From sequence record JX128258: a stretch of DNA of 64,000 nucleotides; one strand, written 5' to 3'. The position numbers and the translations under genes are program-made. Position 1 is the stretch's first letter, and each line of letters opens with the position of its first letter. The notes beneath the pieces were generated by a model. The model did not search any database, was not told the DNA's origin, and saw only the letters and a list, made by a program, of their open reading frames with translations. Shown piece by piece: positions 7,845 through 64,000 of this stretch. The DNA is from Escherichia phage ECML-117.

Positions 7845-7855
7845 GGAGAAGAAAG

Positions 7856-8065: not shown

Positions 8066-8091
8066 TTATAATCACCCACCGTTACTAATAG

Positions 8092-8116
8092 GCCGCGCTT
8101 AGTCGCGGCTTTTCTT
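8092..8116 (+). terminator. rho-independent terminator (GCCGCG-cttagt-CGCGGC + TTTTCTT)
   Basis: Read directly after the stop at 8065. Confidence 0.6.
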
Positions 8117-8586: not shown

Positions 8587-8709
8587 AAATTTGCAGTACA
8601 CTAATCAAAATACGACACATTTGGTCCACTAACTTTTCAAAGAAAAAGTCCTAGACAGTACCGTACTATTTTGTGCCCACAGTAAATTTGCAGTACACTC
8701 CTGCGCGGC
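8587..8709 (+). repeat. two copies of 16-bp motif AAATTTGCAGTACACT
   Basis: Exact copies at 8587-8602 and 8694-8709; shares the ATTTGCA core with the 11-bp array at 5367-6261. Confidence 0.7.
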
Positions 8710-8767
8710 AGGCAAAGAAAGGGCCGCCACAGCGACCCACGATTCACGGTTAAATCAGCAACACCCA

Positions 8768-9178
8768 CTATTCGCTCTTATGGGCATCACCAAAGCCATC
8801 CGCAATCTGGCTGATCAATGATTCAATGGACACAGTTTTACCAATTGATCGAGCGGTAATAGCAAGCATATTATCAATCAAACCATGATTGGATGCATAT
8901 GGTCCAGGTTTTGAATCATCTTCAGGACAGCCAAAAAGCTGGTCGCGCAAACTTTCGAGAGAACGCTCAATATTTTCCAGCTTCTCTTCTAAATCAGATT
9001 GGCGACGTAAAACCCATGTTAAGTCTCGGTTGCCGACTTCCAACCCATCAGAATCGCAAGCTGGAACGTCAATTTTGATGCTGCCACCAAAGGCCATTCC
9101 GCTGCCTTTAGTATATGTGTTGTGAATAGAATCATTCTTATTTGACATATCATTACCTTTCATGAGGGTGATTAACAA
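8768..9178 (-). CDS. hypothetical protein (136 aa)
   Basis: Track ORF on minus strand; start may be an internal Met. Confidence 0.5.
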   Translation of the reverse strand: MLITLMKGNDMSNKNDSIHNTYTKGSGMAFGGSIKIDVPACDSDGLEVGNRDLTWVLRRQSDLEEKLENIERSLESLRDQLFGCPEDDSKPGPYASNHGLIDNMLAITARSIGKTVSIESLISQIADGFGDAHKSE

Positions 9179-9208
9179 TAACTATAATAAAGCCGCATAG
9201 CGCGGCAT

Positions 9209-9469
9209 TCAAATCGGTTTGTTAATTGTAACGATTGGATTCATCAATCGATACCAACTGTGCTGGGTCGCCGGATACGGTCGAGCCAATGATACCCATC
9301 TGCTGAAAGAACTCTGAATAAACTTCCTTCCAGTATCTACGCGCTGCTTTCTGAGCCTGCCTTTGCGCTTGAAGCTTTTACCTTGAAAGATGAAACGGTC
9401 GCTTGCCGCTCGATACTCCACCACACCTTCCAGCCATTGTAAGAACGCTACTGATTCATTCTGATTCAT
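9209..9469 (-). CDS. hypothetical protein (86 aa)
   Basis: Track ORF on minus strand. Confidence 0.4.
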   Translation of the reverse strand: MNQNESVAFLQWLEGVVEYRAASDRFIFQGKSFKRKGRLRKQRVDTGRKFIQSSFSRWVSLARPYPATQHSWYRLMNPIVTINKPI

Positions 9470-10256: not shown

Positions 10257-12614
10257 TTATTTTGCTGCTTTCAGCGCGGCTATTTCTGCCTTTAGTTCAT
10301 CTATCTGATCCATCAATGCAAGAATTGCCTCGTGATGGAGTGCTGCTGCAACGCCAGAAGTGTTTACTGACTTTACGTCATCCAGAATTGACCCATCACG
10401 CAGGGTGACTGGTGATGATTTTGTTTCTGATACGGCTTCAGGGAAGTCTTTCTCTACGTCCTGCGCGATGAATCCGTATCCGATTGAGCCATTTGTCTCC
10501 AGGACCCATGTGACCCCTTTGATGTTTCTCATCTTGGAGAGCGGATTACTGATGCGCTCAATGTTGCTTTTAATTCTTTCGTCAGATGTGCTTCGCCATT
10601 CCTGGCATCTTGCTATGCCGTCAGCACCAAATAGATAAGAGGCACTGCTGCCAATGCCATTCAAAATGTTAAGTTGCGCACGGTCCAATGCTGTTGTGCC
10701 ACTTCTGACTCCGCCAAGCATCCAATTCCCGTCATACCAGTCGCCGCCAACGGAGTTTATATAGCCTCCTTCTGGCACATTCGCGTAGTTGATCATCCTG
10801 ATGGCATTTCTTTCTGAAGCTGCCACCCCGACTGAATTCAACGGTTGTGCAACGACATCCTTGGGCCTTACGTATGCGTCAATGTGTAATGCGCCGTCAG
10901 GCCTTAGTGTGCCAATTTGAGTCTCTGCGCTTGGGAAGTACAAAGTCCCAGCTTGGTTGAATGACCATTCTTGCACCCCATTAGATATCACCGCACCTTG
11001 TTCAGATGTTAATCCATCAATTTTTCCGTATGCCTGCAAGAATGCTTGATACGCAACGTTCGTGCCAATCTTATATTCAGATTTTACACTACCGCCTCTG
11101 ACAAGCGTTCCGGCTGCAGGTTTTACTGCGTCGCCGTTAATCACACTCCAAGAAGTATTCGCGGCAACAAATCCACCCGATGCACGAATCACCCAAACGC
11201 CAACAAAGTTGCGACCCATGATTTCGTCAGTTGCCGCTCCATAAATCGGGCTTGATCTGGATGCATCAATATTTATTGTATTGAGACGCCCCTCCACTGC
11301 CCCGCTTCCAACAGGTATGGTGTCGCCGCCGCCTTGGGGGTACAAATCGTTGTTTGTGTAAAAAGCACCTCGGACGGCTGTGCCAAAGATTTGCGCATAA
11401 GTGCCTGCCGATACACCAGCAGCTGAGCCTGTGATGTTTGGTGCAGCAGATTCAAATATTTGACCGTTCGCAGTGGAGTTGCCGCCATCACCGCGCCCGT
11501 AAAGCGCCCGTACAGAGCCTGTCTGGACACCGTTAAGGTCTGGGACACGGAATGTCGTTGTGCCGTTACCTGAAGAATATTTTGCACGTTTGAACTTATC
11601 CGCAAGCCAGTCGGCATCTGCGATGGGTGAAAGCATCTGCGCATACGCCCAAAGTTCAGGCCAGTCAGCACGGTTTAGCAATTGCCCGTCTGCAACGACT
11701 TCGTATGGCTGAATATATGATCTACTATTGCGAAGATGGAAATCGCCAACACCATAGTTCATGACACCGTTCATACTTGGGCCAACGGTGCCTGTGTTTA
11801 CTAAGTTTTCAACCCAACGCTTAGTCGCGGCATCATAATCATTTACAGGGTCGCCAGCGAGCGGCGTTGATCCTTGTGGACGGATGTTTAGCCACGCCTG
11901 AGCATTATCTGCAGAGCCTGTGCCGCCCATTGAAGTTGGAACGATGCTCTGATCAGCAACAGGGCCGAATCCGAAAGCAGTCTTCATTCCTTGAATGGTG
12001 GTCTGCCCAGTTCCGCCATTTGCAATTGGAATCGTGCTTTGCGTACTATACATTTGCACCCAATCCGACCAGGATGATGAGCCAGCATTGTATAGCCTTT
12101 GGTATATGGCGTTGATCCAATAAGGCGTATATCTTTGGACGCAGCTTTCTCCTGCGACGCCAGTATTGTAAACTTCAAGAATACCAGCTTGTGAGACTGG
12201 ATAGTTCAGCGCCGATGATGCACCAGCATTTGCTGATTGATGATATTGACCAAACCATGAACCAGTCAAGGCATTGAGATTTATTCCGTTAGGAATCTCT
12301 CCAAAGTTTCGGACAGTACCCGTCAAAGTTGCGGCAGTGGTTCGAATAGAAAGCATGTCGCCAGCCGCCCATGCACGCGCTGCAGTCCCTTCTTGTGCAC
12401 GCTGCACGGTCAGGACGTTTCCAACAACGGCTGTTACTGTGACGATTTCGAATTGGAGGCCTGTTGCAGCGTCGACGATTGTCGCCACTACACGCTCGTT
12501 TGCGCCCAAGGTCGGAAAGCCCGACCCTGAGCGAATTGTGATTGTGGTGTCTGAAGTCGTCGTTGGTTGAGCCAGCGCGACCTCAAAGTTGTTTTTGAAT
12601 ATTAGCCTTGGCAT
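10257..12614 (-). CDS. tail spike/fibre protein with C-terminal intramolecular chaperone (S74-type autoproteolytic) domain
   Basis: 785 aa; Gly/Ser/Thr/Asn-rich fibrous body; C-terminal segment containing SDERIKSNIE and a terminal coiled coil, as in endosialidase-type chaperone domains. Confidence 0.7.
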   Translation of the reverse strand: MPRLIFKNNFEVALAQPTTTSDTTITIRSGSGFPTLGANERVVATIVDAATGLQFEIVTVTAVVGNVLTVQRAQEGTAARAWAAGDMLSIRTTAATLTGTVRNFGEIPNGINLNALTGSWFGQYHQSANAGASSALNYPVSQAGILEVYNTGVAGESCVQRYTPYWINAIYQRLYNAGSSSWSDWVQMYSTQSTIPIANGGTGQTTIQGMKTAFGFGPVADQSIVPTSMGGTGSADNAQAWLNIRPQGSTPLAGDPVNDYDAATKRWVENLVNTGTVGPSMNGVMNYGVGDFHLRNSRSYIQPYEVVADGQLLNRADWPELWAYAQMLSPIADADWLADKFKRAKYSSGNGTTTFRVPDLNGVQTGSVRALYGRGDGGNSTANGQIFESAAPNITGSAAGVSAGTYAQIFGTAVRGAFYTNNDLYPQGGGDTIPVGSGAVEGRLNTINIDASRSSPIYGAATDEIMGRNFVGVWVIRASGGFVAANTSWSVINGDAVKPAAGTLVRGGSVKSEYKIGTNVAYQAFLQAYGKIDGLTSEQGAVISNGVQEWSFNQAGTLYFPSAETQIGTLRPDGALHIDAYVRPKDVVAQPLNSVGVAASERNAIRMINYANVPEGGYINSVGGDWYDGNWMLGGVRSGTTALDRAQLNILNGIGSSASYLFGADGIARCQEWRSTSDERIKSNIERISNPLSKMRNIKGVTWVLETNGSIGYGFIAQDVEKDFPEAVSETKSSPVTLRDGSILDDVKSVNTSGVAAALHHEAILALMDQIDELKAEIAALKAAK

Positions 12615-43811: not shown

Positions 43812-44786
43812 TTAAAAATACTCCATATCGGTAATATCACGGAAGCACTTATACAAGGCAGAGCGCGGCACGTCAACGATGCCAAAGTTAAAGAATTTAT
43901 ATGTCAGATATTTGTTGCGATAGTTCTCGCGATTCTCCCAAAGCATTTTTCTCTCTGCCATAGGCATTGAACCAGCGGAGACGCGGAAAGGAATCATTTC
44001 GCCTTTCTCATCAACATATTTTGGATTGACAACCACAAATGATCCAAGGTATCCTTTCGCAACTAAGCCTTCAGCCTCTTTCGAACGCTTAGTGCGACCC
44101 AACTCATCAATGAATGCCTCGTTGTTGTTCTCCATCATCTCAACGAAGTCTATGATCAATCCTTCTTCATCGGTCCACGGCTTGTCCTTCCACACATCAC
44201 GTGACTTTGGCGTCGCGCGGCCATGCTTGTATTTGCCCGTCCAAGACTTGCCATACAAGCCTTCATAGCCAAGCTGGTCTGCTTCGATTTGCATTGCCGC
44301 GTACTGTTCCATATTTTCGATGTTTCGATATTCGAGAGCGCGAAGGAATGGGCGTCGACCATGGTTGATGAGGTGCTGATTGACTTCAGCAACTCTAGCG
44401 CGATAGTTTGCATAACGCTTTTCAAAAGGCAAATCAGGGTCGCTGAAGTCATCAAACACCCACCATGTAAAGTTAGTGATTGCATCAGTATTCATGCAGG
44501 CTGTATAGGCTTGCTGCATGACGTTCTTGTCGTTCGGATTGCCGTCAATAAGCTCTCCATCAAGGCCATGAATCAATTCACCCAAAAAGAGGAACTCTTT
44601 TTTGATTTGAATGTTGCGCAGAGCCATGCCGGACGTGCCCATTGGCAAGTTGTCATACGCCATCGCGCGTATGCCATCGACCTTGAAGGACAACCCGCAA
44701 GGCAGCGGCACATCTTCGCCGCGCTCGATAATTTGCTTACGCTGGCAACCCTTCATTGGTTTTAATGCTTTGATTTCCCCTGCCAT
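43812..44786 (-). CDS. ATP-dependent DNA ligase
   Basis: 324 aa; adenylation motif I FKVDGIRAM (KxDG). Confidence 0.7.
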   Translation of the reverse strand: MAGEIKALKPMKGCQRKQIIERGEDVPLPCGLSFKVDGIRAMAYDNLPMGTSGMALRNIQIKKEFLFLGELIHGLDGELIDGNPNDKNVMQQAYTACMNTDAITNFTWWVFDDFSDPDLPFEKRYANYRARVAEVNQHLINHGRRPFLRALEYRNIENMEQYAAMQIEADQLGYEGLYGKSWTGKYKHGRATPKSRDVWKDKPWTDEEGLIIDFVEMMENNNEAFIDELGRTKRSKEAEGLVAKGYLGSFVVVNPKYVDEKGEMIPFRVSAGSMPMAERKMLWENRENYRNKYLTYKFFNFGIVDVPRSALYKCFRDITDMEYF

Positions 44787-45951: not shown

Positions 45952-46812
45952 TTAAAACTCTTCTGCGTCAGTCGGAGTTTCGTTGACAGGACCAGCGGCA
46001 CCGCTTGCTTCTTCCTGCTTGCTGCGGTCAATGTTAACGTTGCCGCCAACTACGTCGTTGTGGAATGCTTTGGCGACTTCATACAGACCTTTGTCCTGCA
46101 CCAGACCTTCCAGCTCAAACTTCAGAACTGACCAGGTGTTGCCGTCTTTGGACTGAGACGCAGTACCCATGCGAACGATGTTCATAAAGGTCGGCGGAGT
46201 TTTCAGGCCCTGCGGAGTCTGAACTTTCTTCTGCTGCAGAGCGGTCATCAGCATGCGAGACGGCTTGATCATGGAAGAAGTCAGAGACAGCATTGCGCTA
46301 CCAAATTCACCAGTTTCTTCGTTTAACAGGATCACAAAGTGGTTACGTGTATCTGCGTAGTAAGGTGATTTCTTCTCGTGCACTTTGCCGTTTTCATCCG
46401 GCACAAACACCTTACCGTTGATCTCAACAGCGCGGCCTGCCGCGACTTCTGCATCAACGTGCTCTTTGGTGAATTCACCTTTAAAGCCTTTATCGTCTGA
46501 CTCGCGACCGCCCCAAAGGATGAAGGTGCGTTTGAATGCGCAAGGGATGATCTGCACGCCTTTCTTGCCGTCATACAACTCACCAGTAACTGTGTTGTAC
46601 AGCATACCAGCTTTTGCGCCAGGCACGTGTTTTGGATCATCTTCGTCGACCATCGGAGACATCTTTTGCAGTACAACGATAAAAGGAATGGCATAAGCGT
46701 CGGCATCGGCACCTTCAAAACCAGCGCCAAAATCGGTCATATCGACAAAATCAGCCATAGCGGACATCTGGGTGTTTTTCACTGCAACTTCGGTAGTTTC
46801 TTTCTTAGACAT
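45952..46812 (-). CDS. putative ssDNA-binding/annealing protein with acidic C-terminal tail
   Basis: 286 aa; C-terminus NETPTDAEEF as in phage SSB tails; call is tentative. Confidence 0.3.
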   Translation of the reverse strand: MSKKETTEVAVKNTQMSAMADFVDMTDFGAGFEGADADAYAIPFIVVLQKMSPMVDEDDPKHVPGAKAGMLYNTVTGELYDGKKGVQIIPCAFKRTFILWGGRESDDKGFKGEFTKEHVDAEVAAGRAVEINGKVFVPDENGKVHEKKSPYYADTRNHFVILLNEETGEFGSAMLSLTSSMIKPSRMLMTALQQKKVQTPQGLKTPPTFMNIVRMGTASQSKDGNTWSVLKFELEGLVQDKGLYEVAKAFHNDVVGGNVNIDRSKQEEASGAAGPVNETPTDAEEF

Positions 46813-46871: not shown

Positions 46872-47429
46872 TTACTTTTTGCTTTTAGGCAAGGTTATTT
46901 TAGCTTCTTTATACTCAAAAACGCTAATATCTTCACTAACTGGATTACCCGCTTCCAGCTGTTCTTTTACAAATGACTTCAGTGTAGCAGAATGAACGCC
47001 TTGTTTCAACGTGGCTTCAACACCGTCTTCACGCAGCGCGGCAACAATCTCTTGCGCTTGCTCGATTTCTTCGCGACCGAACTCAGCCGTGACGCTGGAC
47101 TTGATCAAGCCGCCGTAACCGTTGTTGACAAGCCAATCGAATACTTTCAATTCATTTTCTTTCTTGATTGAAGCATTGACTTTTGACTCTACCTTGATTT
47201 TGGTTTTGTCTTCAAGCTTGATTTCGGACACGCCAAGCTCATCCATAACGCCAGGAAGCAGAACAGTTTTGATTTCACTGATGCGCTGCTTTTGCATATC
47301 AGCTTCATCTTCAAGCTCTGTCAAAGCTTCTTGGCGTTCTGCCAATTCCGATACTAAGCGCGCAAGGCGCTCTTGAATGCTCTCAGGAGCGACCTGCGGC
47401 AAATCATCTTCCCAATTAATATTGCTCAT
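46872..47429 (-). CDS. hypothetical coiled-coil protein (185 aa)
   Basis: Track ORF. Confidence 0.5.
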   Translation of the reverse strand: MSNINWEDDLPQVAPESIQERLARLVSELAERQEALTELEDEADMQKQRISEIKTVLLPGVMDELGVSEIKLEDKTKIKVESKVNASIKKENELKVFDWLVNNGYGGLIKSSVTAEFGREEIEQAQEIVAALREDGVEATLKQGVHSATLKSFVKEQLEAGNPVSEDISVFEYKEAKITLPKSKK

Positions 47430-47763: not shown

Positions 47764-49287
47764 TTAATTCATCTTTTTGCCGTCGAGGATGTGATCAGCA
47801 AGCATAGACTTCATACTTAGTGAACGCTGAATTTCTTCGTCGATGGTATCAACACCAATAAAATCAACATACAATACGCTTGATTTTGTTCCGATGCGGT
47901 GATTTCGGTCTTCGGATTGCTTGCGCAACTCGTTGTCATAGTTGCAAGAATAGTAGATTGCCAAGTCAGCGGCGGTAAGCGTGATGCCGATGCCTGCCGC
48001 TGCAGCGTGGCAAACCAATACCTGTGTTCCGCCATTCGCCACTGTGTTCTTCTGGAAGTCATCAATTAAGAACTCGCGTTGCTCTTTTGACGTTTCACCG
48101 TTGTATACACCAGTGACCACGCCTTCAGACTCAAGCCAATCCTTAATCTGGTTCATCTCTTCCTTAAAGATGGCCCAAACAATGAATTTGCGCTCTGGGT
48201 CATCTTCCAACACCCCTTCCACATAGTCCTTAAATGCCGTGAATCGTGGGTTGTCTTCCATGTAGACCATCTCATCATACACCTTAACAAAGCCGGATGT
48301 CACCTGCTTCATCTTAGTGCGCGACGCGATCATCTCAAACTTGACGTTTTCTTCTTCGCCTTTGTACTCCATCAGATAGTTGTACTCATTCTTGAGTTCA
48401 TCGTAAACATCGCGTTGTTTAGGCGACAACTCGAAGTCAATAAACTTGTACACCTTCTCTGGAAGGTCCGGCAAGTATTCCGCTTTTGTCGCACGAAAAT
48501 AGTGCGGTTCCATCAGCCGGATAAGCTTGTCAAGGTTTTTGTACATCGGTCGGCCAAACTGGTCTTTGCGCGGCACTTGCGGAATCCCATGGCCATTGCC
48601 GCCGATTTTCTTGAGGATGGCTTGCATCTCTGGGTCGTGCGCTTCAAGTAGCACCGTGAATTCAGAGTTGAATGCACGGAATGATTTGGTGCCGAGCAAG
48701 CCTGCTTCAAGGAAGTGGTATTGCATGTAAATATCCGCAGGCGAGCGCGGCAACGGCGTGCCAGAAAGGATTCGACGGGCCTTTGCCAGCCGTCCCAATT
48801 CCACAACCTTGATGGAGCGTTTTGCTGTGTTATTCTTGATTCGCGTTGATTCGTCGATAATCATCAGGCAGCGGTATTTCTTCAAGACCGACTCGATGTG
48901 TTGATAACCGACTGGTGTGTTGACTGTGTCGATGTTGAATGAGAAAATGCGCGCAGGCACTTCGCCTTCAGGGTAGTGATCAGCAAACATCTTCTCCCAA
49001 AGCGCCTTGCCCTTTTTAGTCTTCATCTTGTCATTGCCGCGCCAGTAGTGCCCAATCCACTTGATGGAAAGGTGTTCTGGTGCTTCACGACGAATCCAGT
49101 TTGAGTGGACACCGTTTGGAGCGATGACGACCATGGCATCGAACGCGCCAGCGACGAAGTGCTTTTCAAACTCTGCCAAAGCGGTCCAAGTTTTACCAAG
49201 ACCCTGTTCCATGAAATAGGCAAAGTATTTTCTGCGGCCTGCTTTATCAAGCGCCAGAAGCTGGTGGCGCATCCCTTGTGTTTTCAT
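47764..49287 (-). CDS. SNF2-family helicase/ATPase
   Basis: 507 aa; Walker A GLGKT, DEST box (MIIDESTRIKN), C-terminal helicase domain. Confidence 0.7.
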   Translation of the reverse strand: MKTQGMRHQLLALDKAGRRKYFAYFMEQGLGKTWTALAEFEKHFVAGAFDAMVVIAPNGVHSNWIRREAPEHLSIKWIGHYWRGNDKMKTKKGKALWEKMFADHYPEGEVPARIFSFNIDTVNTPVGYQHIESVLKKYRCLMIIDESTRIKNNTAKRSIKVVELGRLAKARRILSGTPLPRSPADIYMQYHFLEAGLLGTKSFRAFNSEFTVLLEAHDPEMQAILKKIGGNGHGIPQVPRKDQFGRPMYKNLDKLIRLMEPHYFRATKAEYLPDLPEKVYKFIDFELSPKQRDVYDELKNEYNYLMEYKGEEENVKFEMIASRTKMKQVTSGFVKVYDEMVYMEDNPRFTAFKDYVEGVLEDDPERKFIVWAIFKEEMNQIKDWLESEGVVTGVYNGETSKEQREFLIDDFQKNTVANGGTQVLVCHAAAAGIGITLTAADLAIYYSCNYDNELRKQSEDRNHRIGTKSSVLYVDFIGVDTIDEEIQRSLSMKSMLADHILDGKKMN

Positions 49288-49706
49288 GACAATTCCTCTA
49301 AATACTTGATGATGTGGTGAATAGTTCCCTTCACGATTATCTCACGTTGAACGTCTGCAATATTATAACGCTTTAATTCAATCGAAGGGTGGACTAAATA
49401 AAACATCTTCTCAGAATCGACTTTAAGCAAAACAAATGATGGGTATTTCCAATCATTCCACGAAGAAAGAAAGCTGCACTGACCTTTCTCAAATGCATTT
49501 CTGAAAGGTGCAGTGGTGGCCCTTGCAGGCCACGATTCAAAGAACTTCATTTCAAGCCAAAAGCCGCGCCCTTTCCGGTTGGTGCCGATTACGTCCGGCA
49601 CGCCATCACCCGTCATCGATTCGATTCGTTGAAGCTTCAATATTGATTCTGAATGTTTCTTCAAAGGAACGAAAATGTATTTTTGTTCACGGTTATTTGT
49701 TGCCAT
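49284..49706 (-). CDS. VRR-NUC domain nuclease
   Basis: 140 aa; GVPDVIG...GRGFWLEMK (PD-(D/E)xK) motif. Confidence 0.6.
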   Translation of the reverse strand: MATNNREQKYIFVPLKKHSESILKLQRIESMTGDGVPDVIGTNRKGRGFWLEMKFFESWPARATTAPFRNAFEKGQCSFLSSWNDWKYPSFVLLKVDSEKMFYLVHPSIELKRYNIADVQREIIVKGTIHHIIKYLEELS

Positions 49707-52590
49707 CTGGATACACCTGTTTGATCACGTCGACGATAAACATGTCAATGCCTTCAAGCTTGCGGCCTTTCATCAGGAAGAATGCACCGTTCCCAACGTT
49801 CTCTGCGATGTATTTCCCGTACTTCTGGAACTTCTCTGGGCGAATCCTGAAGCGCATTGGCGAGTCTGTCGAATCATCCTTGCACATAAGGTCGATGAAC
49901 TGGGTCTCAATCTTGTTTCCAAACTTATCCTTATCCGCATAGCGGCCATCAGCTTGAAGACCCTTTTTAAGTTTGCCGTGCTTTGTATAAATGCCGCGCT
50001 CAAGACGTTTACGGATGCGTGTTGCTTCGTTTTCATCTGCCAGCACTTTCTTGGTCAACTTGCCGATTACTATTGCACGCTCGTCATCGCCGACTTCCTT
50101 CATCTGGCGTATTGAAGCACCGGAAGTAACGCCAATCAGATATGGGTCATTATACGCCCAACCGAACTTGGTGTGCATCTCTGTAAGGTCGCCGTATTTG
50201 ACTTCAGCATTTGCCAATGCGTCCTTTTGTTTTTGCGTTAAGGTTCCGGCTTCACGTGCTTCGATGTACTTCATCGCCTTCACCATTCCGTACCCTTTAG
50301 CGTTCATTATGCCGCCAATTAGCTTTCCGTTAGCGATGGTCCAGTTCATTGAAGAGTGATCAGGGTCGATTGGCACATAATCCACGCCTTCCTTCGCAAG
50401 TTCACGTAATATCGCAATCGTCTGGTCTTCGTCCTTAGCAGCGCGTAAGCAAGCAGCAGCAAATTCCAACGGGTAGTGTCGTTTAAGCCACAAGGTCCAG
50501 TAGGTCACGACCGCGTATGACACGGAGTGTGACTTGTTAAAGCCCCATGACCCGAACGTCGCCATCGCCTGCCAAAGCTTTCTTGCATCCGCTTCCGGTA
50601 CGCCGTTATTTATTGCGCCTGCAACGAAGTCTTCGCCAAGCTTGTTAAAGTATTCCTCACCCTTACGACCTGACATCGCCTTACGTACAGCGGATGTTTT
50701 CGCCCAGTCAAATGAACCAATCTCTTTAACCACGGCCATGATTTGCTCTTGGTAAAGAAACACGCCGTAAGTCTCTTTTAAGTACGGCTCAAGTTGCGGT
50801 ACGTCGTACTCAATCGGCGCACGTCCTGCCGCGCGTTCAATGTATTTCTGGGCCATACCGGACGACAACGGGCCAGGTCGGCCAAGTGCTGTCAGGTTAT
50901 CGATTTTGTTAAAGTTATCAACGTGCACAAAGTTGGTCACTGAGCGTACAGCGTCGCCTTCAAACTGGAAGATGCCTGACATCTTGTTTTCGTTAAGGAT
51001 GTCAAGGACGCTTTGGTCATCAAGCTTGATTCCGTACAGCGTTTCAGCATCTATCACACCAGTATCAGAAATGATTCCGAGGGTACGAAGACCCAATGCA
51101 TCAAGCTTCAAAAGGTTAAGGTATTCGCTGTCAGGCTTATCAATTTGCGCAATCCCTTCCGCCGTCACTGTACAGTAATCAGAGATTGGGTCATTACACA
51201 CGATGATTCCCGCTGCGTGAACGCCAGTGTGGGAAGGGTGAATCTCAAGGTCACCCATGCATCGCGCGGCATCGGGATATTTAGCCACAAACTCTTGGCC
51301 CGTGGTCGTTGTTGCAAAGGTATCCTCCAGGCCGTGACCATAACGGGCGTCACCAGATGAGTATTCAAGCAATGCGTTTTTAATGTTGGCCGTTTCGTGA
51401 TATCCAATGTTGAATTTCTTACCAACTTGAGCCATTACTGAGTTGGCCTTAAGCGTGTTGATGTTGCCAAGCTTTGCAACGTTCATTTCGCCGTATTTTT
51501 CTTTAAGGTAATCAAACACCATATAGCGTTTGGTATCCTCAAAGTCAATATCAATATCAGGAAGGTCGGCGCGGCTTACGTCGATGAATCGGGCGAACAG
51601 CAGCTTATACGGGATTGGGTCAACTTCCGTGATGCCGAGGCAATAACAAACCAGTGAACCAGCCGATGAGCCGCGAGCGGGTCCGACGAGCATTTTTGTT
51701 TTTGCAAATCGTACAAGGTCCGCTACCACCAGAAAGTATGAGTCGAAATCTTTCAGCTGAATCTGGTGAATCTCTTCGTTGAATCGGTCCTCATATTCCT
51801 GAGTCCATTCTTTGATGTGACCTGCCTTAAGGCGGTACTCCATACCCTCACGAGCAAGCTTTACCATGTCACCAGCAAGGTGGATAATCGGTGCCTTGCG
51901 CAGCTTCAGGTCAAGTCCCACGATTCCGTTTGCAATATCAACCGCATTGGCAGTTGCTTGATTCAACTCATCTTCGGTCAGGATTCCTTTAAGCTGTTTG
52001 CGCAAGTCTTCCGCGTCAACAATGCAGTGCGGCTTGACCGTGTCGCGAACTTCCCAAGCATAAGCAAAGTCAACGTGCTCAGGTGAAGGCATGTGGTTGT
52101 ATCCGGTTAAAACCAGCGGCCTTCCGTTGCTGCGGTGAGCCAATACCTGGCGCTTGGCCAAAAGGAACGATGATGGGTTGACGTCTATATAATCGTAGTC
52201 CTCTGGCCGCAGCAACTCCACGGCACCGCCACAGAATTTAACGACTCCATCGAGCGCCCCGAACTCTGCACGGGTCAGTCCGCCGCGTTGTGTTGCAAGC
52301 GTGGTCGCGTTGTAAAAGGACTTCAGGTCAAGCGCCAATATCCAAGCCTTCGGTTTGAATCCATTTTTCGGGTCCGCATCAGGGTCGATGATTGGAATTT
52401 CCATGCCGAACATAGGCTTGATATCATTCTTCTGACATTCCTTTTCCCAGCGAACGTGACCCCATGTATTATTATCAACTAATGCCGCGACTTCGCAGCC
52501 CAACTCTTTGAGCCGTGCTATAATTTCAGGATGCCGTCCATATACTTCTTTGAACGTGTAACCGCTGCGAACTCTCAATTGTGGAAACAT
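49693..52590 (-). CDS. dnaE: DNA polymerase III alpha-type (DnaE-like) polymerase with PHP domain
   Basis: 965 aa; N-terminal PHP-like region, central palm-like region (GPARGSSAGSLVCYCLGITEVDP). Confidence 0.75.
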   Translation of the reverse strand: MFPQLRVRSGYTFKEVYGRHPEIIARLKELGCEVAALVDNNTWGHVRWEKECQKNDIKPMFGMEIPIIDPDADPKNGFKPKAWILALDLKSFYNATTLATQRGGLTRAEFGALDGVVKFCGGAVELLRPEDYDYIDVNPSSFLLAKRQVLAHRSNGRPLVLTGYNHMPSPEHVDFAYAWEVRDTVKPHCIVDAEDLRKQLKGILTEDELNQATANAVDIANGIVGLDLKLRKAPIIHLAGDMVKLAREGMEYRLKAGHIKEWTQEYEDRFNEEIHQIQLKDFDSYFLVVADLVRFAKTKMLVGPARGSSAGSLVCYCLGITEVDPIPYKLLFARFIDVSRADLPDIDIDFEDTKRYMVFDYLKEKYGEMNVAKLGNINTLKANSVMAQVGKKFNIGYHETANIKNALLEYSSGDARYGHGLEDTFATTTTGQEFVAKYPDAARCMGDLEIHPSHTGVHAAGIIVCNDPISDYCTVTAEGIAQIDKPDSEYLNLLKLDALGLRTLGIISDTGVIDAETLYGIKLDDQSVLDILNENKMSGIFQFEGDAVRSVTNFVHVDNFNKIDNLTALGRPGPLSSGMAQKYIERAAGRAPIEYDVPQLEPYLKETYGVFLYQEQIMAVVKEIGSFDWAKTSAVRKAMSGRKGEEYFNKLGEDFVAGAINNGVPEADARKLWQAMATFGSWGFNKSHSVSYAVVTYWTLWLKRHYPLEFAAACLRAAKDEDQTIAILRELAKEGVDYVPIDPDHSSMNWTIANGKLIGGIMNAKGYGMVKAMKYIEAREAGTLTQKQKDALANAEVKYGDLTEMHTKFGWAYNDPYLIGVTSGASIRQMKEVGDDERAIVIGKLTKKVLADENEATRIRKRLERGIYTKHGKLKKGLQADGRYADKDKFGNKIETQFIDLMCKDDSTDSPMRFRIRPEKFQKYGKYIAENVGNGAFFLMKGRKLEGIDMFIVDVIKQVYPDGNK

Positions 52591-53132
52591 TATTTACTCC
52601 ATATGTCATATACGCCAATTTGTTGGCAGACTTTGTGCAGTAATATTACGTCGTCTAATGCACGGTGCTTCTGTTCATATTTTCCGAAATATAATTCATA
52701 CAGCTCTTGAAGCTTAACTCTTCGGCCAAAAATAGGCAAGGTTTGCTCGACTGTACAAATGTTTATTTCTGGAAAATTAACATCACCAAGTGTAAGACCT
52801 TCGCGCTGTAATGCATAGTCAAGAATGTTTTTATCAAACGCATGGTTGTGCGCGATAGTTGCATCCGTCTTCTTGAAGATTTCTTTTAGTTGCGGAACGA
52901 AATGGATGAAGGGTGGATTACACTCAAGGTCTTCGTTGGTTAATCCGGTAATCTTTGTGATGATTTCTTCAATCACAATTTCAGGATTAATTATGAACTC
53001 GAACGTTTCAAGAATCTCTTTGCCGTCCGTCAGCAGTCCTGCAAATTCAATAGGGCGCGGCTGCATTCCAAGCGGCGCTTTCGGGTGCACGGTTAATCCG
53101 GTTGTTTCGAAGTCATAAGGGAGAAATAACAC
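52590..53132 (-). CDS. DnaQ-like 3'-5' exonuclease (DEDDh)
   Basis: 180 aa; YDFETTG (Exo I), HNHAFD (Exo II), HRALDD (Exo III). Confidence 0.7.
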   Translation of the reverse strand: MLFLPYDFETTGLTVHPKAPLGMQPRPIEFAGLLTDGKEILETFEFIINPEIVIEEIITKITGLTNEDLECNPPFIHFVPQLKEIFKKTDATIAHNHAFDKNILDYALQREGLTLGDVNFPEINICTVEQTLPIFGRRVKLQELYELYFGKYEQKHRALDDVILLHKVCQQIGVYDIWSK

Positions 53133-53186
53133 ATTGGCCTCCTACAAAAAGGCCGCCCATTAGGACGGCCACAGATTCACGATTCG

Positions 53187-53738
53187 TTATGCAGTGTACG
53201 GAGTACCGTCTTGATTCAAGCGCACGATAAACTTCAAATCAACGCCGATGATTTCACGCGTATCAAAGATCACATAGTTGTAACGACGCTGACCAGCAAT
53301 ATTTGGGTTGGTGTGAGAGTCGGTCACAACTTCCTGCGCAACCTGAATGCCTTCTTCTTTAAAGAACTTGCGCCATTCAGCAAGTTCAGCGGCAGTCACG
53401 TGCATACCAAGATGGCTAACCTGATTGTCGTGCGCATCGATGTATTCGATGTTTTCGTGAATCCAGTTGCAACCTTTTGTATAGTCAAGAATTTCAAGCT
53501 CAAGAGGCTTACCAGCGCCGCCATCGGTGCCGTTGCCAGCCTGATAGTTGAAGCGCAAGTCAGCTTCGTTGGTGCAATCGCCGCGCTGACCCTTAAAGAC
53601 ATCAGCTTCAAATACGCGACCAGTAGCAACAACGTGATCATGGAACCATTCTGTCAGGCCGATTTTAGCCAGGAAATTCTGTGCGCGCTGAGCACCTGGA
53701 ATTGACAGGGCGATTTGTTCAATTTTAAAGTGTGGCAT
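53187..53738 (-). CDS. hypothetical protein (183 aa)
   Basis: Track ORF; no confident motif. Confidence 0.5.
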   Translation of the reverse strand: MPHFKIEQIALSIPGAQRAQNFLAKIGLTEWFHDHVVATGRVFEADVFKGQRGDCTNEADLRFNYQAGNGTDGGAGKPLELEILDYTKGCNWIHENIEYIDAHDNQVSHLGMHVTAAELAEWRKFFKEEGIQVAQEVVTDSHTNPNIAGQRRYNYVIFDTREIIGVDLKFIVRLNQDGTPYTA

Positions 53739-53834: not shown

Positions 53835-54518
53835 TTATTTCCCAAATGGAATATCAGTACCAGACATAAAACGCCATGCGCCCGTAATTAAGATATGGCG
53901 AATGAAGTCAGCAATTACTTGCGGCTCAGTCTCCAATCCATTCATCAACGCCTTTTTCTGGTATTCAGCAGCATACTCAGGAGTCCAGCCGCGAGTCGCG
54001 CAAACAGCATCTTCAATCTGTTTGGACATACCAGTGCCGCGCAACTTGTTAGGACTAATAGAAAATACCGTGATCCCGTATTTAGGCGTAAGCTCGTGAG
54101 CCATCTGCTTGCTAATCATGAGCGCAGCAGCCTTGGAAGCATTATAACACAAGCTGGACGTCATAGGAATATGCGCAGCGTTGGAAACGATATTGATCAC
54201 AAAACCTTTGTTGTCGATAAGACTTTTCAGCGCGGCTTGAGTCGTGTTGACGAAAGAGAAGGCGTTGGTGTGCATAACGCGATTGAACTCTTCGTAGTTA
54301 ACATCTTCAAACCAGTTGTTGGAGTTGACGCCAGCACAGTTGATCAAGCCTTCTACATCATATGGGCTTAAAATTTCTTTCATCTGTTTCGCGTCGCGGA
54401 CGTCATATCCGTATGCTGAATCGATTCCAAGCACGTTATGACCGTAAGCGCCAAGGGTGTCAAAAATAGATTTACCAAGACCGGAATTGGAACCTGTTAC
54501 AACAATTACTTTTTTCAT
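53835..54518 (-). CDS. short-chain dehydrogenase/reductase (SDR)
   Basis: 227 aa; VTGSNSGLGKS cofactor-binding motif and YNASK catalytic motif. Confidence 0.65.
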   Translation of the reverse strand: MKKVIVVTGSNSGLGKSIFDTLGAYGHNVLGIDSAYGYDVRDAKQMKEILSPYDVEGLINCAGVNSNNWFEDVNYEEFNRVMHTNAFSFVNTTQAALKSLIDNKGFVINIVSNAAHIPMTSSLCYNASKAAALMISKQMAHELTPKYGITVFSISPNKLRGTGMSKQIEDAVCATRGWTPEYAAEYQKKALMNGLETEPQVIADFIRHILITGAWRFMSGTDIPFGK

Positions 54519-56781: not shown

Positions 56782-57777
56782 TTATTTATTAGCAATATAA
56801 GCAAATTTTTGATAGTTATTTGCTTTGATGAGTTTTTCGACTTCAACAAGGTCATGAGCGACGTCATCAAGCAAAATGTTTCGCCAGGTAGCGAATCTAC
56901 CGACACTAAAAACGTTCAAATCCATAGTCAGCTGCAGGAGTAGGGCGTGTCGCAAGTCTTTCGGAATGTCGACAATCTTGCCATATTTCTGGTCGACCTT
57001 TTCAACTTCTTCAAGAGCGATATCACTCCATGAAAGGCCAAATGCCGTCAACACTTCGTCGACTTCTGCGCGAAGCTTCATGTCACGGTAACGAGTGATG
57101 CCTCCAGCGGCTTCAACTGCAGCTTCACTTACGCTGACTAAAGGAATTGTTTCAATGATAAGCGTGTCACCAGTAATTGATGCGCGGTAAGTTCTGACGG
57201 AGTAGTCAGGGAAGTAAATTGTCTGATACAAATCACACTTACGTTTAATCTTAAAGCGGTAAACGCGAATGTTTGCTTTATCAAATGAAAAATCAAGCTT
57301 TTGATCAATTCCAGCAAGCTTCATCATGACTGGCAGCGGCGACGTGTTGATGATTGGCGTCTCGCTATAGCCGCAAAGAGTATCAACAGGAGTATTAAAG
57401 AATATGCGGTCACCCAGTTTGTCGACAAGCTGATCATAAAAGTCATCAGGCGCAATATAACGCGTTGCAGTCTTAAGCTTCATGATTGAACGGCTGCCAA
57501 ACTGATTGGTGACCTTCATGGAATACATATTGGCAAGGTTAATTGGGCAATGGTCATGGTAGTAGTTGCCGCGAAAATACACAGCCTTGTCAACTGTCAC
57601 GGCCTTAAAGGGGATTCCGGTAATACGGCTTACTTCTTCGCCACGGAAGCGTAGCAATGCCTTGTGCTGTTGCGCTCGTTCCCCTGCTTCGTACACAACA
57701 GAGTTCGGGAAGTGACACGCTGTGATAAGTCCTGCCAGTCCGCCGCCGATAATCATTACAGGTTGTTTCATGTTCAT
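56782..57777 (-). CDS. FAD/NAD(P)-binding flavoprotein oxidoreductase
   Basis: 331 aa; N-terminal IIGGGLAGL Rossmann motif; C-terminal GRFATWRNILLDD resembles the C-terminal motif of UGM/amine-oxidase-type flavoenzymes. Confidence 0.5.
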   Translation of the reverse strand: MNMKQPVMIIGGGLAGLITACHFPNSVVYEAGERAQQHKALLRFRGEEVSRITGIPFKAVTVDKAVYFRGNYYHDHCPINLANMYSMKVTNQFGSRSIMKLKTATRYIAPDDFYDQLVDKLGDRIFFNTPVDTLCGYSETPIINTSPLPVMMKLAGIDQKLDFSFDKANIRVYRFKIKRKCDLYQTIYFPDYSVRTYRASITGDTLIIETIPLVSVSEAAVEAAGGITRYRDMKLRAEVDEVLTAFGLSWSDIALEEVEKVDQKYGKIVDIPKDLRHALLLQLTMDLNVFSVGRFATWRNILLDDVAHDLVEVEKLIKANNYQKFAYIANK

Positions 57778-57909: not shown

Positions 57910-58755
57910 TTATTCCGCTTGATCACCGTCTTCGGCATCGTCGTTGGATTCAACATCGACAAACTCGATGTGACCCATCTCTTCCAGCTTGCTCAGGTAG
58001 GAGCGAACGGAAGCGCCAAACAGTTGATCTTTAACTTTTTCGCCCAGCTCATCGATAGACTGCGCCACGCCAACTTCGCCTTCTTTGATCGCCGCCAGAA
58101 CGCGTCCACGGGTGGAGTGCTCTTGCGGCTGGCTCAGGCCATTGCCAGTGTAGATGAAGTGAGTAGCTTTTGCACGACGCTGACCGTTTGCCTTTTTAGC
58201 GGCCTTACGTTCTGCGATGGCTTTGCGACGTTCTTCAGCTTCTTTCTTACGCTGTTCTTTCTGCTGTTCTGCAGCTTCTTTCGCCGCAATCTTAGCAGCT
58301 TCACGCTCTGCCTTGCGTTTCGCTTTAGCTTCTTCTTTAGCCTTCTCTTTTTCGGCCTTCGCTGCAGCACGGGCTTGATCACGCTCTGCTTTCTTAGCAG
58401 CAGCTTGCTCAGCTTTCAGACGCTTGGCTTCTTCTTTAGCCTTCGCCTTTTCGATTTCTTTTGCTGCTTTAGCGGCTTCACGCTCTGCCTTCTTAGCAGC
58501 AGCCTTTTCTGCACGCTCTTTGGCTTTCTTCGCTGCTTCTTCAGCACGTTTCTGAGCCTTCTCATCAGCAGCCTGCTTACGTTTCAGTGCAGCTTCTTCA
58601 CGCTTGGCTTGTTTTTCCTGCTCACGCTTTTGGCGTTTTTCTTCGGCTTCTTTCTTTTTAGCCAGGCGTTTTTCTTCAGCCACGCGACGACGTTCTGCTG
58701 CAGCTGCTTGTTTTTCTTCTTTAGATAATACTTTGATTGCTTCGGCCATGTTCAC
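57910..58755 (-). CDS. Lys/Ala/Glu-rich (TolA-like repeat) protein with C-terminal globular domain
   Basis: 281 aa; about 180 residues of KAEEKAA-type repeats; the plus-strand ORF 57664..58728 is its low-complexity antisense. Confidence 0.55.
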   Translation of the reverse strand: MNMAEAIKVLSKEEKQAAAAERRRVAEEKRLAKKKEAEEKRQKREQEKQAKREEAALKRKQAADEKAQKRAEEAAKKAKERAEKAAAKKAEREAAKAAKEIEKAKAKEEAKRLKAEQAAAKKAERDQARAAAKAEKEKAKEEAKAKRKAEREAAKIAAKEAAEQQKEQRKKEAEERRKAIAERKAAKKANGQRRAKATHFIYTGNGLSQPQEHSTRGRVLAAIKEGEVGVAQSIDELGEKVKDQLFGASVRSYLSKLEEMGHIEFVDVESNDDAEDGDQAE

Positions 58756-58908: not shown

Positions 58909-60093
58909 TTAACGCGCTTTCAAATCACGGTACACAGTCAGATTCTTCTTAGCGCGGGTAATAGCCGTATACATCATCTTGGCATACGGAACGCCGCGCA
59001 AGATTTCTTCCAGCACGCACACATTGTCCCACTCGCTGCCTTGCGATTTGTGCACCGTTATGACATAGCCATAGTCCATTCCTCCAACAGCGCGTTGGGC
59101 CTCTTTGCGCACTTCCTGATCAGTAGAGAAGGAAAGAGGATTTATCTTCACCTTTATATCTTTGCCATCGGTAAGCGAGCGCAAATTGACATACATTATT
59201 TCATTAGACTCATCTTCATCCCTTTCAAAGTCCGGCACTGGCTCATAACTAATAACAATTCCTTGTTCGCCATTACAGAATCCTGGCCCGTGTTGGTTGA
59301 ATGTGCAAATAACTTTCTCGCCGATTCCTGGCATTGGCGTTATACGTCCGCTCACTTGTCGCAATAATGAATTCCATTTATCTTTGGTGCTATTATAAGA
59401 GCAAATAATTTGATCATCTTCGCCCATAAATTTCTTCAGAGCGGTAACGCGCGGCGATTCAGCCAACACCTTTACATCATCATATTCACGCGGAGGAAGT
59501 CGGTTGCCCTGTCGCACGAAGAAGGAAGCGCGGATTATGTTGGACTCTTTCCCCTGCCGCATGATTTCGGTCAACAGTACGTCAACTGCATCTTCAGTAA
59601 AGTAGGCAGCGGCTTTTACCGGAGGGACTTGTCCAATGTCGCCTAATGCCAGCACAGGGATGCGGTGATCAAGAAGGCGTTCTGTGTCCCACTCACCGAC
59701 CATTGAAGCTTCATCAAGGACGACAAGATGCGGCCTTTCATCAAGAGTTGACTTTCTTGCGAATATTGGTTCATTGTCATCGTTAACGCCGCGCACGTTA
59801 TAGATGAACTGGTGAAGGGTCTTAGCGCCACGACACCCTTTCTGCTTCAATCGGCTGGCTGCCTTTCCGGTCGGCGCAATATAAATGGCACCGTACTCAC
59901 CGACACAACGGCGCACAATCTCACGCGCAATAGAGGTTTTACCTGTTCCTGCATAGCCAGCGATGAAAAATACGCGCTTCGTTGTTTTACCGTCCTGCAA
60001 TCGCTTGTACCATGCAACGGCCTTTTCGATGGCATCAATTTGTTGCGCGTTGAACTGAATCACCGGCTCATCATTAAATTCTGGAATGTTCAT
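58909..60093 (-). CDS. SF1 DNA helicase (Dda/RecD-like)
   Basis: 394 aa; Walker A GYAGTGKTS, Walker B VLDEASMV, C-terminal ITVHKSQGSEWDNV. Confidence 0.7.
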   Translation of the reverse strand: MNIPEFNDEPVIQFNAQQIDAIEKAVAWYKRLQDGKTTKRVFFIAGYAGTGKTSIAREIVRRCVGEYGAIYIAPTGKAASRLKQKGCRGAKTLHQFIYNVRGVNDDNEPIFARKSTLDERPHLVVLDEASMVGEWDTERLLDHRIPVLALGDIGQVPPVKAAAYFTEDAVDVLLTEIMRQGKESNIIRASFFVRQGNRLPPREYDDVKVLAESPRVTALKKFMGEDDQIICSYNSTKDKWNSLLRQVSGRITPMPGIGEKVICTFNQHGPGFCNGEQGIVISYEPVPDFERDEDESNEIMYVNLRSLTDGKDIKVKINPLSFSTDQEVRKEAQRAVGGMDYGYVITVHKSQGSEWDNVCVLEEILRGVPYAKMMYTAITRAKKNLTVYRDLKAR

Positions 60094-60579: not shown

Positions 60580-61662
60580 ATGGCTAGTTTAAGAGAAGAA
60601 GCAAAAATAATTGAAGAGTTTTTGACGGAACTCCAAAGAGGCATTCCAGAAGATGAACGCGTCATGACCGTGTTTGCGCCTGAAGCAACGGTGCAGACCG
60701 ACGAGCGCGGCAAAAAGATTAACAGCAGCTTCTGGCCTAAGCCTTGGAAGCTTGGCAAGCCGCTGATGCAACATCAGAACGGTTACGCCTGCATAAGTTC
60801 AATGCGTAAGTCTCCCAACCCCAAGACAGGCGAGATGCGATACTGGCGCACGGAATCGGCTTTCGGTCATGGCATGGCGATGATGGTCGACGACATTGGT
60901 CACGGTAAAGGGTCCAAAGGCGATTTAGATTTGGAATTCTTTTTCGAGCGCCTGAAGCCAACCGTCATTGTCGAGACTTCACCGAACAACCACCAGCTGT
61001 GGTATTTCTTTAAAGACCCGATTGACCATCTTATCCAGTTCAAAGCATTCCTTGGGTCTTTCGTAAACATGGTACTCAAGAAGGGCGGCGACAACACGAT
61101 TAAAGATGTAACGCGCGTGGGCCGTGTTCCTGGGTGCATCAACAACAAGCGTGTGACTCACGACGGCCCCTATAAATATGTCGATGAGAACGGCGACCCG
61201 TTCCGCTGCCGACTTGTTCATGCAGACTATTCTTTGCGCTACACAATCGAAGAGATTTGCCAAGCCTTCGGTTTCCACGTCGTTATGCCGCAAAAGCGTG
61301 AAATTCAAATCGACGTTGACGAATACAAATATGACGCTGTTTGGTATAAGATAGCCCAGCAAATCCTTGCGCGCAATAAGATGGGCGAAGGGTCCGATGG
61401 CGATGTGGTTGAAAATATGTCAGGTAAATGTCGCATCATCTGTCCTTGGGGTGAAGAGCACACCAACGGCGACCCATACGGCGCTTATTTTCGCGGCCCA
61501 ATCCCTGGCGCTGAACATGAATTCGTTTTCGGTTGCGCTCACGACTGTCACCGGAAAGGGGAAGGCAAGAAAGGATGGACCGCTTTTGTTGAAGCAGTAG
61601 TCATGCCTTATATTGAGAATCAACTTGATATGATAAATCGTCGCGCAGGTGGCATAAAATAG
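60580..61662 (+). CDS. primase-like replication protein (Prim-Pol/RepB'-like candidate) with C-terminal Cys/His cluster
   Basis: 360 aa; MVDDIGHG acidic motif, C-terminal CPWGEEH...CAHDCH; lies upstream of an SF3 helicase. Confidence 0.35.
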   Translation: MASLREEAKIIEEFLTELQRGIPEDERVMTVFAPEATVQTDERGKKINSSFWPKPWKLGKPLMQHQNGYACISSMRKSPNPKTGEMRYWRTESAFGHGMAMMVDDIGHGKGSKGDLDLEFFFERLKPTVIVETSPNNHQLWYFFKDPIDHLIQFKAFLGSFVNMVLKKGGDNTIKDVTRVGRVPGCINNKRVTHDGPYKYVDENGDPFRCRLVHADYSLRYTIEEICQAFGFHVVMPQKREIQIDVDEYKYDAVWYKIAQQILARNKMGEGSDGDVVENMSGKCRIICPWGEEHTNGDPYGAYFRGPIPGAEHEFVFGCAHDCHRKGEGKKGWTAFVEAVVMPYIENQLDMINRRAGGIK

Positions 61663-62971: not shown

Positions 62972-64000
62972 ATGTCAATTGAACATGACAATCTTCCAGA
63001 GGATACAGGTGATGAATTTGGTGCAATCTTTGACGAAATTCAAGACGCTGGTGTTTCAGAAGAGATGCAAGCGGCAGAGCAGCAAGGCACCAGAGCTAAA
63101 ATCAGCCTCCAGCATAAGGCTGTTGAGAAAGATGCAGAGCGCATGGAATGCTACGGTGAAGAAGACTTGGTTGAAAGAGCACGCTTGCTCGCCTCACTTC
63201 AGGTAATCAAGTTCCCTCATTATAAACCGACGAAAGATGATTTTGTTCTTCAGGCGGACCGGACGAGTGACATGAACCGTTATGCGGTTTTCGACGCGTT
63301 GTTTGATAAGGGAAGCGGCATTGTCCCATTCCCTCACAAAGATACTTTTCGTGGACGCTTAGTCGACCATCGCGGAGAAACATTCACCGACCGGACGTTG
63401 GAAGTCACAGAGATAGTTGCCGCTGTCGACGCAGCAGGCCTGTCCAACCCAAACTCACGTCAGGTCGCTCAATCCTATAAGGAATGGGCCATGCGTTATC
63501 AGCGCGACGACCTGATGGACTTCTTCTACAAGAAGCTGCCTGAATGGGACGGTACTGCGCGCATTGAAAAATACCTTATCGAGCTATTCCGACCGTTCGA
63601 TACAGAGTTAAACCGACAAATCGGTGTGTATTTTTGGCTATCGCTCTATAACCGCCTGACCAATCCTGGCTGTCAAGCGCCAATCTCCATTGCGCTAATC
63701 GGCGGCCAGAACGCAGGGAAGAGTTATTTTAGTAAGCTACTTTGCGAAGCTATTATGAACGACCGCCACGCAACACCGATTCCGTTGAACTTGGCCGCGC
63801 AAAACTTCAACCCGTTCTTGCGAGCTATTACGGGTCGCTCAATTATCGCGAACGTTGGCGAGATGACAGGCTTTAAAAAGGCTGACATCGAAAACATGAA
63901 AGCATTCCTGACTAAGACGGAAGATGACCTGGACTTCAAATTTGAAGACACGCAGGTTAAACCACGCCAGTGGATTGCTATCATGGACGGCAACGAATAC
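62972..64000 (+). CDS. SF3 (D5/VirE-like) helicase, 3'-truncated by window end
   Basis: ATG at 62972 after AGGAGG; open to window end (343 codons); Walker A IGGQNAGKS and Walker B-like IAIMDG; absent from track because no stop lies in the window. Confidence 0.55.
   Translation, partial: MSIEHDNLPEDTGDEFGAIFDEIQDAGVSEEMQAAEQQGTRAKISLQHKAVEKDAERMECYGEEDLVERARLLASLQVIKFPHYKPTKDDFVLQADRTSDMNRYAVFDALFDKGSGIVPFPHKDTFRGRLVDHRGETFTDRTLEVTEIVAAVDAAGLSNPNSRQVAQSYKEWAMRYQRDDLMDFFYKKLPEWDGTARIEKYLIELFRPFDTELNRQIGVYFWLSLYNRLTNPGCQAPISIALIGGQNAGKSYFSKLLCEAIMNDRHATPIPLNLAAQNFNPFLRAITGRSIIANVGEMTGFKKADIENMKAFLTKTEDDLDFKFEDTQVKPRQWIAIMDGNEY

Follow-up and report, generated by a model that had tools for sequence, protein, structure and literature searches.

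C-family DNA polymerases have been described in a minority of viruses. In a survey of 2011 they were found in 28 of 808 double-stranded DNA (dsDNA) viruses; viral members without clamps were documented, and their C-terminal parts were reported by Kazlauskas and Venclovas to have no similarity to the Escherichia coli enzyme (PMC3201878). The closest described systems are those of the genera Wifcevirus and Pbunavirus. Wifcevirus phages are myoviruses of 66-72 kb that are distantly related to Pbunavirus (PMC11990801, PMC6563267), and fast genome replication has been reported for them (PMC11990801). For the Pbunavirus phage Banzai, homologues of the polymerase III (Pol III) alpha and epsilon subunits, a Holliday junction resolvase and an Ino80/CHD1L-like translocase were described in 2025, together with a Dda-like helicase, a SaPI-like self-loading helicase, a primase and a ligase (PMC12390725). 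Here we analyzed a 64,000-nt stretch of Escherichia phage ECML-117 (JX128258), hereafter called the window, in which positions 47764-53132 on the minus strand probably constitute a replication core of the Wifcevirus type. It would consist of a minimal alpha-epsilon replicase and a co-expressed pair of proteins for branch migration and resolution.

The first-pass annotation of this DNA had implied that the region is something out of the ordinary, which is not supported. It is the standard module of Wifcevirus and Pbunavirus, is present in GenBank, where it is catalogued in dozens of near-identical genomes, and has been discussed for the sister genus (PMC12390725), so that its interpretation is largely in print for close relatives. 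Wifcevirus records already carry the labels DNA polymerase III alpha, epsilon or exonuclease subunit and DNA helicase, and the same genes are annotated in vB_EcoM_WFH and in about 300 Pbunavirus genomes. What is added here is the family placement of the small nuclease, the degenerate PHP domain and OB fold of the polymerase, the absence of tether and clamp elements, the evidence that the cassette is portable and the correction of two annotation errors, namely the nuclease recorded as a 'DNA helicase' and an exonuclease start that deletes the DxE motif.

A conserved four-gene cassette

Positions 47764 and 53132 are the exact outer ends of four consecutive overlapping open reading frames (ORFs) on the minus strand, encoding a DEDDh exonuclease, a DnaE-type polymerase, a small nuclease and an SNF2 ATPase of 180, 965, 140 and 507 amino acids (aa), respectively (Table 1). 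From the exonuclease gene onwards, the overlaps measure 1 nt (TAATG), 14 nt and 4 nt (ATGA). As far as can be read from the sequence, the four genes form a translationally coupled, operon-like cassette. Its upstream edge is a terminator-like hairpin directly in front of the exonuclease gene, and the next comparable hairpin on the minus strand downstream of the cassette lies at 45934-45913. From the scans for promoters and terminators the strongest intergenic hairpins alone were used; the scanned region contained 20 terminator sites with 20 expected, a total not above chance, and 32 promoter sites with 25 expected, which is not clearly above chance.

The block shows 97% nucleotide identity to Escherichia phage vB_EcoM_WFH (genus Wifcevirus) and 93-97% to 26 other records of the Wifcevirus group, and the gene order matches the annotation of phage Bas99 one for one. 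The genes are real, far beyond chance; in total, 27 sequenced phages share 93-97% of the nucleotides of the block. When the window was compared with the Wifcevirus and Pbunavirus replication module (vB_EcoM_WFH, Bas99, crassa, Banzai), no substantive difference was found, and the window is a member of this group. The Pbunavirus genes have the same order and the same ORF overlaps, and their products share 56% (exonuclease), about 58% (DnaE), 52% (SNF2) and about 32% (nuclease) identity with the proteins of the window.

The order exonuclease-DnaE-nuclease-SNF2 was also followed across more distant genomes. It is present with overlapping ORFs in Pbunavirus crassa, in a 59-kb metagenomic contig and in a 40.6-kb Ralstonia phage whose genes are otherwise different (41% identity for DnaE, 40% for the exonuclease, 36% for SNF2, with the nuclease motif kept), and it recurs in a 72.6-kb metagenomic contig in which a 40-aa ORF lies between the exonuclease and DnaE genes. 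The same order is thus found in unrelated phage backbones, and therefore the four genes behave as a conserved cassette.

DnaE-like genes were detected in 1375 of 50,697 phage records (2.7%), mostly in phages of Pseudomonas, Mycobacterium, Streptomyces, Gordonia and Bacillus; together with the survey cited above, this bears out the earlier statement that DnaE-type polymerases are uncommon in phages, although as a minority they are well populated. Other phage C-family polymerases (from actinophages, Bacillus SPbeta-like phages, Cellulophaga phage phiST and the 'Gratiaviridae') likewise have a DnaE core and mostly no clamp (PMC3201878, PMC8008677), but they align over the core only (46-77% of the query, 24-37% identity) and their neighbouring genes differ. 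Gordonia phage Arti, unlike the window, lacks an SNF2 gene and encodes RecA-like, RecB-like and RuvC-like proteins. In its interval 4986-9258 (L006), the DnaE-like gene lies two genes from the RuvC-like resolvase gene, which is not homologous to the nuclease described here, with the RecA-like and RecB-like genes upstream. A junction nuclease beside a replicase appears to be a recurring arrangement.

The polymerase and its separate exonuclease

The 965-aa protein had been taken in the first-pass annotation for a Pol III alpha-type polymerase with a PHP domain, a view that assignment to a non-polymerase PHP family would have spoken against. Profile hidden Markov models placed it among the DnaE polymerases. 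The polymerase core (DNA_pol3_alpha, PF07733; E=3e-63, 214 bits against a cut-off of 23.9) and the fingers (DNA_pol3_finger, PF17657; E=1e-37, 129.5 bits against 22) were both matched above the Pfam thresholds, and the N-terminal PHP domain was matched with 26.6 bits, barely over its cut-off of 26.4. The protein also passed NCBIfam TIGR00594 (474.5 bits against 434), and none of the NCBIfam equivalog cut-offs for DnaE1, DnaE2 or PolC was reached. Solved Pol III alpha chains were matched at E=3e-85, or at 7e-111 with a profile of 36 sequences. In BLASTP alignments, residues 2-798 correspond to residues 6-872 of E. coli DnaE with 29% identity, and D345, D347 and D497 align to the catalytic palm aspartates D401, D403 and D555 of E. 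coli. These three residues are invariant in 36 of 36 homologues.

Two other explanations for the gene were considered and rejected. The polymerase is not a recent capture of a host gene, because its identity to E. coli DnaE is so low, and its C-terminus is different as well; and no other ORF in the window has the size or family expected for a second polymerase. The best 120 matches to the protein were phage-clade homologues only. Some homologues (P0121, P0104) are about 1215-1232 aa long, and one contains the Pfam intein-splicing domain PF14890; judging from this domain, the phage DnaE clade is invaded by inteins.

The layout of PHP, palm, thumb, fingers and OB domains, the catalytic aspartates, a non-catalytic PHP domain and a separate DEDDh proofreader are all shared with the E. 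coli Pol III core, but identity is only 29% for alpha and 24% for epsilon, and the phage alpha is about 195 aa shorter. In the PHP domain, the metal-binding HxH motif is replaced by R6-x-R8, with Q4 at the position of the preceding histidine, and RxR was found in all 36 homologues examined. E. coli alpha keeps one histidine of HxH, whereas the phage protein has lost that too. The PHP domain is thus very probably devoid of exonuclease activity, and a catalytically dead PHP domain fits the presence of a separate proofreader. The C-terminus of the polymerase is modelled as an OB fold. The protein stops there; nothing aligns to E. coli residues 873-1160, and the tau-binding domain has no counterpart.

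The proposed assignment of the proofreader as a stand-alone DEDDh exonuclease was supported. The 180-aa protein matches Pfam RNase_T (E=1.6e-21, 77.9 bits against a cut-off of 24), belongs to PHROG 192 ('DNA polymerase exonuclease subunit') and contains the complete DEDDh set (D7, E9, D100, H156 and D161), of which D100, H156 and D161 align to D103, H162 and D167 of E. coli epsilon. Among solved structures, the exonuclease domain of Thermotoga PolC is closest in sequence to the phage protein (E=6e-6), and the NCBIfam equivalog cut-off for epsilon was not reached. The GTG start of the gene is preceded by an AGGAGG ribosome-binding site 5 nt upstream, and the N-terminus including DxE is kept in the 184-aa Pbunavirus orthologue. 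In the GenBank record of Bas99 the gene starts at the internal Met23 (158 aa; L001 20827-21303), which deletes the catalytic DxE (Exo I). The GTG start is preferred here because a start at Met23 would remove this motif.

The exonuclease stops at the position of approximately residue 186 in E. coli epsilon (243 aa), which is the end of the catalytic domain there, and the C-terminal segment of about 57 aa with which E. coli epsilon binds alpha and the clamp is absent. A loose regular-expression scan for penta- and hexapeptide beta-clamp-binding motifs, which took in 12 proteins of the replication region, detected none in the polymerase, either internally or at the C-terminus, and none in the exonuclease; elsewhere two unremarkable hexamers only were found, and the scan is weak negative evidence. 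Because a tau domain, a recognisable clamp motif and the epsilon tether are all missing, the phage replicase probably does not join the host holoenzyme by the canonical contacts.

It could be argued that the phage alpha and epsilon homologues instead hijack the beta clamp of the host and perhaps its clamp loader by non-canonical contacts and act as a substitute core in a hybrid host-phage holoenzyme. Domain searches recognized no clamp, clamp loader or single-stranded DNA-binding protein (SSB) among the proteins of the window, the polymerase keeps the OB fold and, as far as about E. coli residue 872, the counterpart of the E. coli beta-binding domain, and the fast replication of Wifcevirus (PMC11990801) would be easier with a processivity factor. 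Yet neither protein contains a QL[SD]LF-like or hexameric clamp motif, the tau-binding C-terminal domain and the clamp-motif-bearing segment of epsilon are both gone, only 29% of the aligned residues are shared with host DnaE, and the same cassette serves in hosts as unlike as Escherichia, Pseudomonas and Ralstonia. We regard this hybrid holoenzyme as a possible but rather unlikely arrangement.

The small nuclease and the SNF2 ATPase

The 140-aa protein had been annotated at first as a VRR-NUC nuclease. The nuclease motif was confirmed; membership in VRR-NUC was not. Unlike RecU/Hjc and the stand-alone VRR-NUC nucleases (PDB 4qbn, 4qbo), the protein passes no Pfam model, and Pfam gave no match even at E=5, VRR_NUC (PF08774) and RecU (PF03838) included. 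Searches of NCBIfam and of the PDB with the single sequence returned nothing usable, the NCBIfam RecU match (E=0.044) being far below its cut-off. A word-indexed homologue search yielded 6 close relatives only; with an exhaustive profile search, 311 relatives were obtained, nearly all of them phage proteins of 130-150 aa. The motif pattern of the protein is G-V-P-D38 ... L-E52-M-K54 ... Q76, and none of D38, E52, K54 and Q76 varies among 114 aligned relatives. A PD-(D/E)xK core is present, with the acidic-D-ExK residues on an alpha-beta-beta-beta-alpha-beta scaffold, and structure prediction places the fold nearest to Holliday junction resolvases and not to solved VRR-NUC domains, at a sequence identity of about 13% to the structural matches. 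Taken together, the protein is best described as a member of a separate small phage PD-(D/E)xK family between VRR-NUC and RecU/Hjc, with a resolvase-like predicted fold.

A true VRR-NUC enzyme, which together with the SNF2 protein would serve in repair, in the manner of FAN1 or as a flap-processing nuclease, and would not resolve four-way junctions, seems improbable. The pattern G-x-P-D ... E-x-K ... Q-x-x-W, which the protein has, is typical of VRR-NUC, and the family profile matches the phage VRR-NUC structure 4qbo (E=0.0012); RecU is matched about equally well (E=0.005). When the 114 relatives were scanned against Pfam, five gave weak VRR_NUC matches (best E=0.0027) and one a weak RecU match (E=0.0011). 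Both the profile and the fold tests thus disfavour this assignment.

In PHROG 2165 and in many GenBank records the nuclease is labelled 'DNA helicase' (orthologues occur in about 369 phage records). This label is wrong and was probably propagated from the SNF2 neighbour.

The assignment of the 507-aa protein as an SNF2 ATPase was upheld. It matches SNF2-rel_dom (PF00176; E=1.4e-21, 77.3 bits against a cut-off of 24.9) and Helicase_C (PF00271; E=6e-11, 43 bits against 23.5), and its best sequence match in the PDB is the Sulfolobus SNF2/Rad54 core 1z63 (E=4.5e-21). Motifs I, II and VI are intact (GLGKT at 29-33, DEST at 145-148 and QSEDRNHRIG at 457-466) and are identical in the Pbunavirus orthologue, which shares 52% of its residues. 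That SNF2 protein and nuclease serve host takeover or genome defence, by RapA-like stripping of host proteins or RNA polymerase from DNA and by degradation of host or competitor DNA rather than in recombination, is disfavoured by the nuclease fold and the cassette linkage and is very doubtful.

Proposed function of the cassette

A functional scheme can start from what the proteins are, from their catalytic motifs, from the operon-like arrangement of the genes and from the conserved linkage of these genes. The DnaE-type polymerase with its dead PHP domain and the separate DEDDh exonuclease as proofreader would form a minimal C-family replicase, with a division of labour between polymerase and proofreader as in E. 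coli alpha-epsilon. This replicase would probably work outside the canonical contacts of the host holoenzyme, that is, those made by tau and by the epsilon tail. The SNF2 protein most likely acts as a dsDNA translocase that drives branch migration or fork remodelling, and the resolvase-like nuclease as a junction cutter; these two roles are proposed because of the fold, the motifs and the conserved linkage. Before packaging, the pair would process the branched DNA that arises as an intermediate in recombination-dependent or concatemer-forming replication. A VapE/SF3-like helicase, a Dda-like helicase, a RepB-type primase and an ATP-dependent ligase encoded nearby would take care of initiation, unwinding, priming and joining.

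Several points weigh against this scheme. We infer every activity and every physical interaction of the cassette proteins from sequence. Apart from the gene overlap, a contact between alpha and epsilon is unsupported, and the exonuclease is devoid of the segment by which epsilon of E. coli is tethered to PHP. Clamp motifs are short and degenerate and the scan for them was a loose one, so that this argument is weak and use of the host beta clamp is possible. With no SSB, clamp or clamp loader identified in the domain searches of the window and with neighbours of 183, 148, 331, 281 and 108 aa uncharacterised, the picture of the replisome is incomplete; theta is not encoded either. SNF2 proteins have many roles. 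Moreover, distant relatives of the nuclease occur without SNF2, one of them directly ahead of the terminase gene in a phage that encodes PolA, so that a partnership of motor and resolvase is not obligatory for the nuclease family. We nevertheless consider the replication core as proposed above the probable function of the region.

A bolder version would treat the cassette as a portable, self-contained machine for replication and recombination. In it, the polymerase would be processive without a clamp, perhaps via the OB fold or the SNF2 motor; the exonuclease would be attached to the dead PHP domain in a manner unlike that of E. coli epsilon (C-terminal tether) or of PolC (insertion into PHP); and SNF2 protein and resolvase would be coupled to the polymerase for fork restart and resolution. 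This is speculative and we think it unlikely. If true, the very short latent period that has been reported for Wifcevirus could be due in part to such a machine.

These findings do not alter present views of how phages replicate, with a modest upside if the enzyme is a clamp-independent C-family replicase. To our knowledge, the replicase is one of few viral C-family polymerases, none of which has been studied biochemically. A two-protein alpha-epsilon system without clamp, tau and theta would be a handy minimal model for C-family function and for the docking of a proofreader on PHP. Phages of Pbunavirus and Wifcevirus are used or considered for therapy, and the practical value of the finding is modest.

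Neighbouring replication genes

The Dda/RecD-like helicase, DNA ligase, primase-like protein and SF3 helicase that the first-pass annotation had noted nearby were all located (Table 1).

Table 1. Features of the replication region in the ECML-117 window
Feature	Position	Strand	Description
ATP-dependent DNA ligase	43812-44786	-	Pfam DNA_ligase_OB_2 E=5e-4 and DNA_ligase_A_M E=5.5e-3, both sub-threshold
SNF2-family dsDNA translocase/ATPase	47764-49287	-	507 aa; motor core only
PD-(D/E)xK nuclease, Holliday-junction-resolvase-like predicted fold (RecU/Hjc/VRR-NUC neighbourhood)	49284-49706	-	140 aa
DnaE-type (C-family) Pol III alpha homologue	49693-52590	-	965 aa; degenerate PHP, palm, thumb, fingers, C-terminal OB fold
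DEDDh 3'-5' exonuclease (epsilon/DnaQ-like), stand-alone	52590-53132	-	180 aa; GTG start, catalytic domain only
Terminator-like GC-rich hairpin and T-run	53151-53170	-	8-bp stem with 7 GC pairs, then TTTTT; directly upstream of the exonuclease gene
SF1B Dda/RecD2-like helicase	58909-60093	-	AAA_30 E=2.5e-22, UvrD_C_2 E=3e-13; NCBIfam RecD2 E=3.5e-34
RepB'-type primase	60580-61662	+	Pfam RepB_primase E=4.1e-36
VapE/D5-like P-loop (SF3-type) helicase	62972-64000	+	cut by the window end; VapE-like_dom E=7.8e-20, DUF5906 E=0.008

For the ligase, the NCBIfam match was sub-threshold as well (PRK09125, E=3e-6). The KVDG adenylation motif I is present at residues 35-38, and the orthologues in Bas99 and phage crassa are labelled ligase. 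The translation of the VapE-like helicase contains the Walker A motif GGQNAGKS, and the full gene encodes 556 aa in Bas99. From its sequence it is a probable initiator helicase, and its Pbunavirus orthologue has been likened to the self-loading helicases of SaPI (PMC12390725).

By Pfam, genes for ThyX, a PNKP-type phosphatase and a short-chain dehydrogenase also sit among the replication genes. The last of these is FabG-like (53835-54518; adh_short E=2.6e-31) and is encoded between this phosphatase and the exonuclease. Two conserved proteins, of 331 and 281 aa (56782-57777 and 57910-58755; PHROGs 4828 and 4765), are encoded between ThyX and the Dda-like helicase. When they were examined as a possible SSB, clamp or recombinase, neither gave any Pfam or PDB sequence match, and their PHROGs carry no function; both are candidates for replisome parts that are missing so far, for example an SSB, a processivity factor or a recombinase.

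Just upstream of the cassette, beyond the hairpin, a 183-aa protein (53187-53738) gave only a faint match to Glyoxalase_4 (E=0.09). Directly downstream of the SNF2 gene, homologues of gp33 and gp34 of cyanophage Pam3 (PF23984 and PF23977; E=2.6e-37 and 4.2e-86) are encoded at 45952-46812 and 46872-47429. Homologues of these two proteins are absent after the cassette in the 59-kb metagenomic contig (L011) and are found again after it in the 72.6-kb contig (L009 8026-9984), there with a Pam3_gp32 domain. Outside the replication region, a 785-aa minus-strand protein (10257-12614) is a tail fibre that has a Peptidase_S74 intramolecular chaperone domain at its C-terminus. Its gene lies away from the main block of structural genes, which fits the two sets of tail fibres that Wifcevirus is reported to have.

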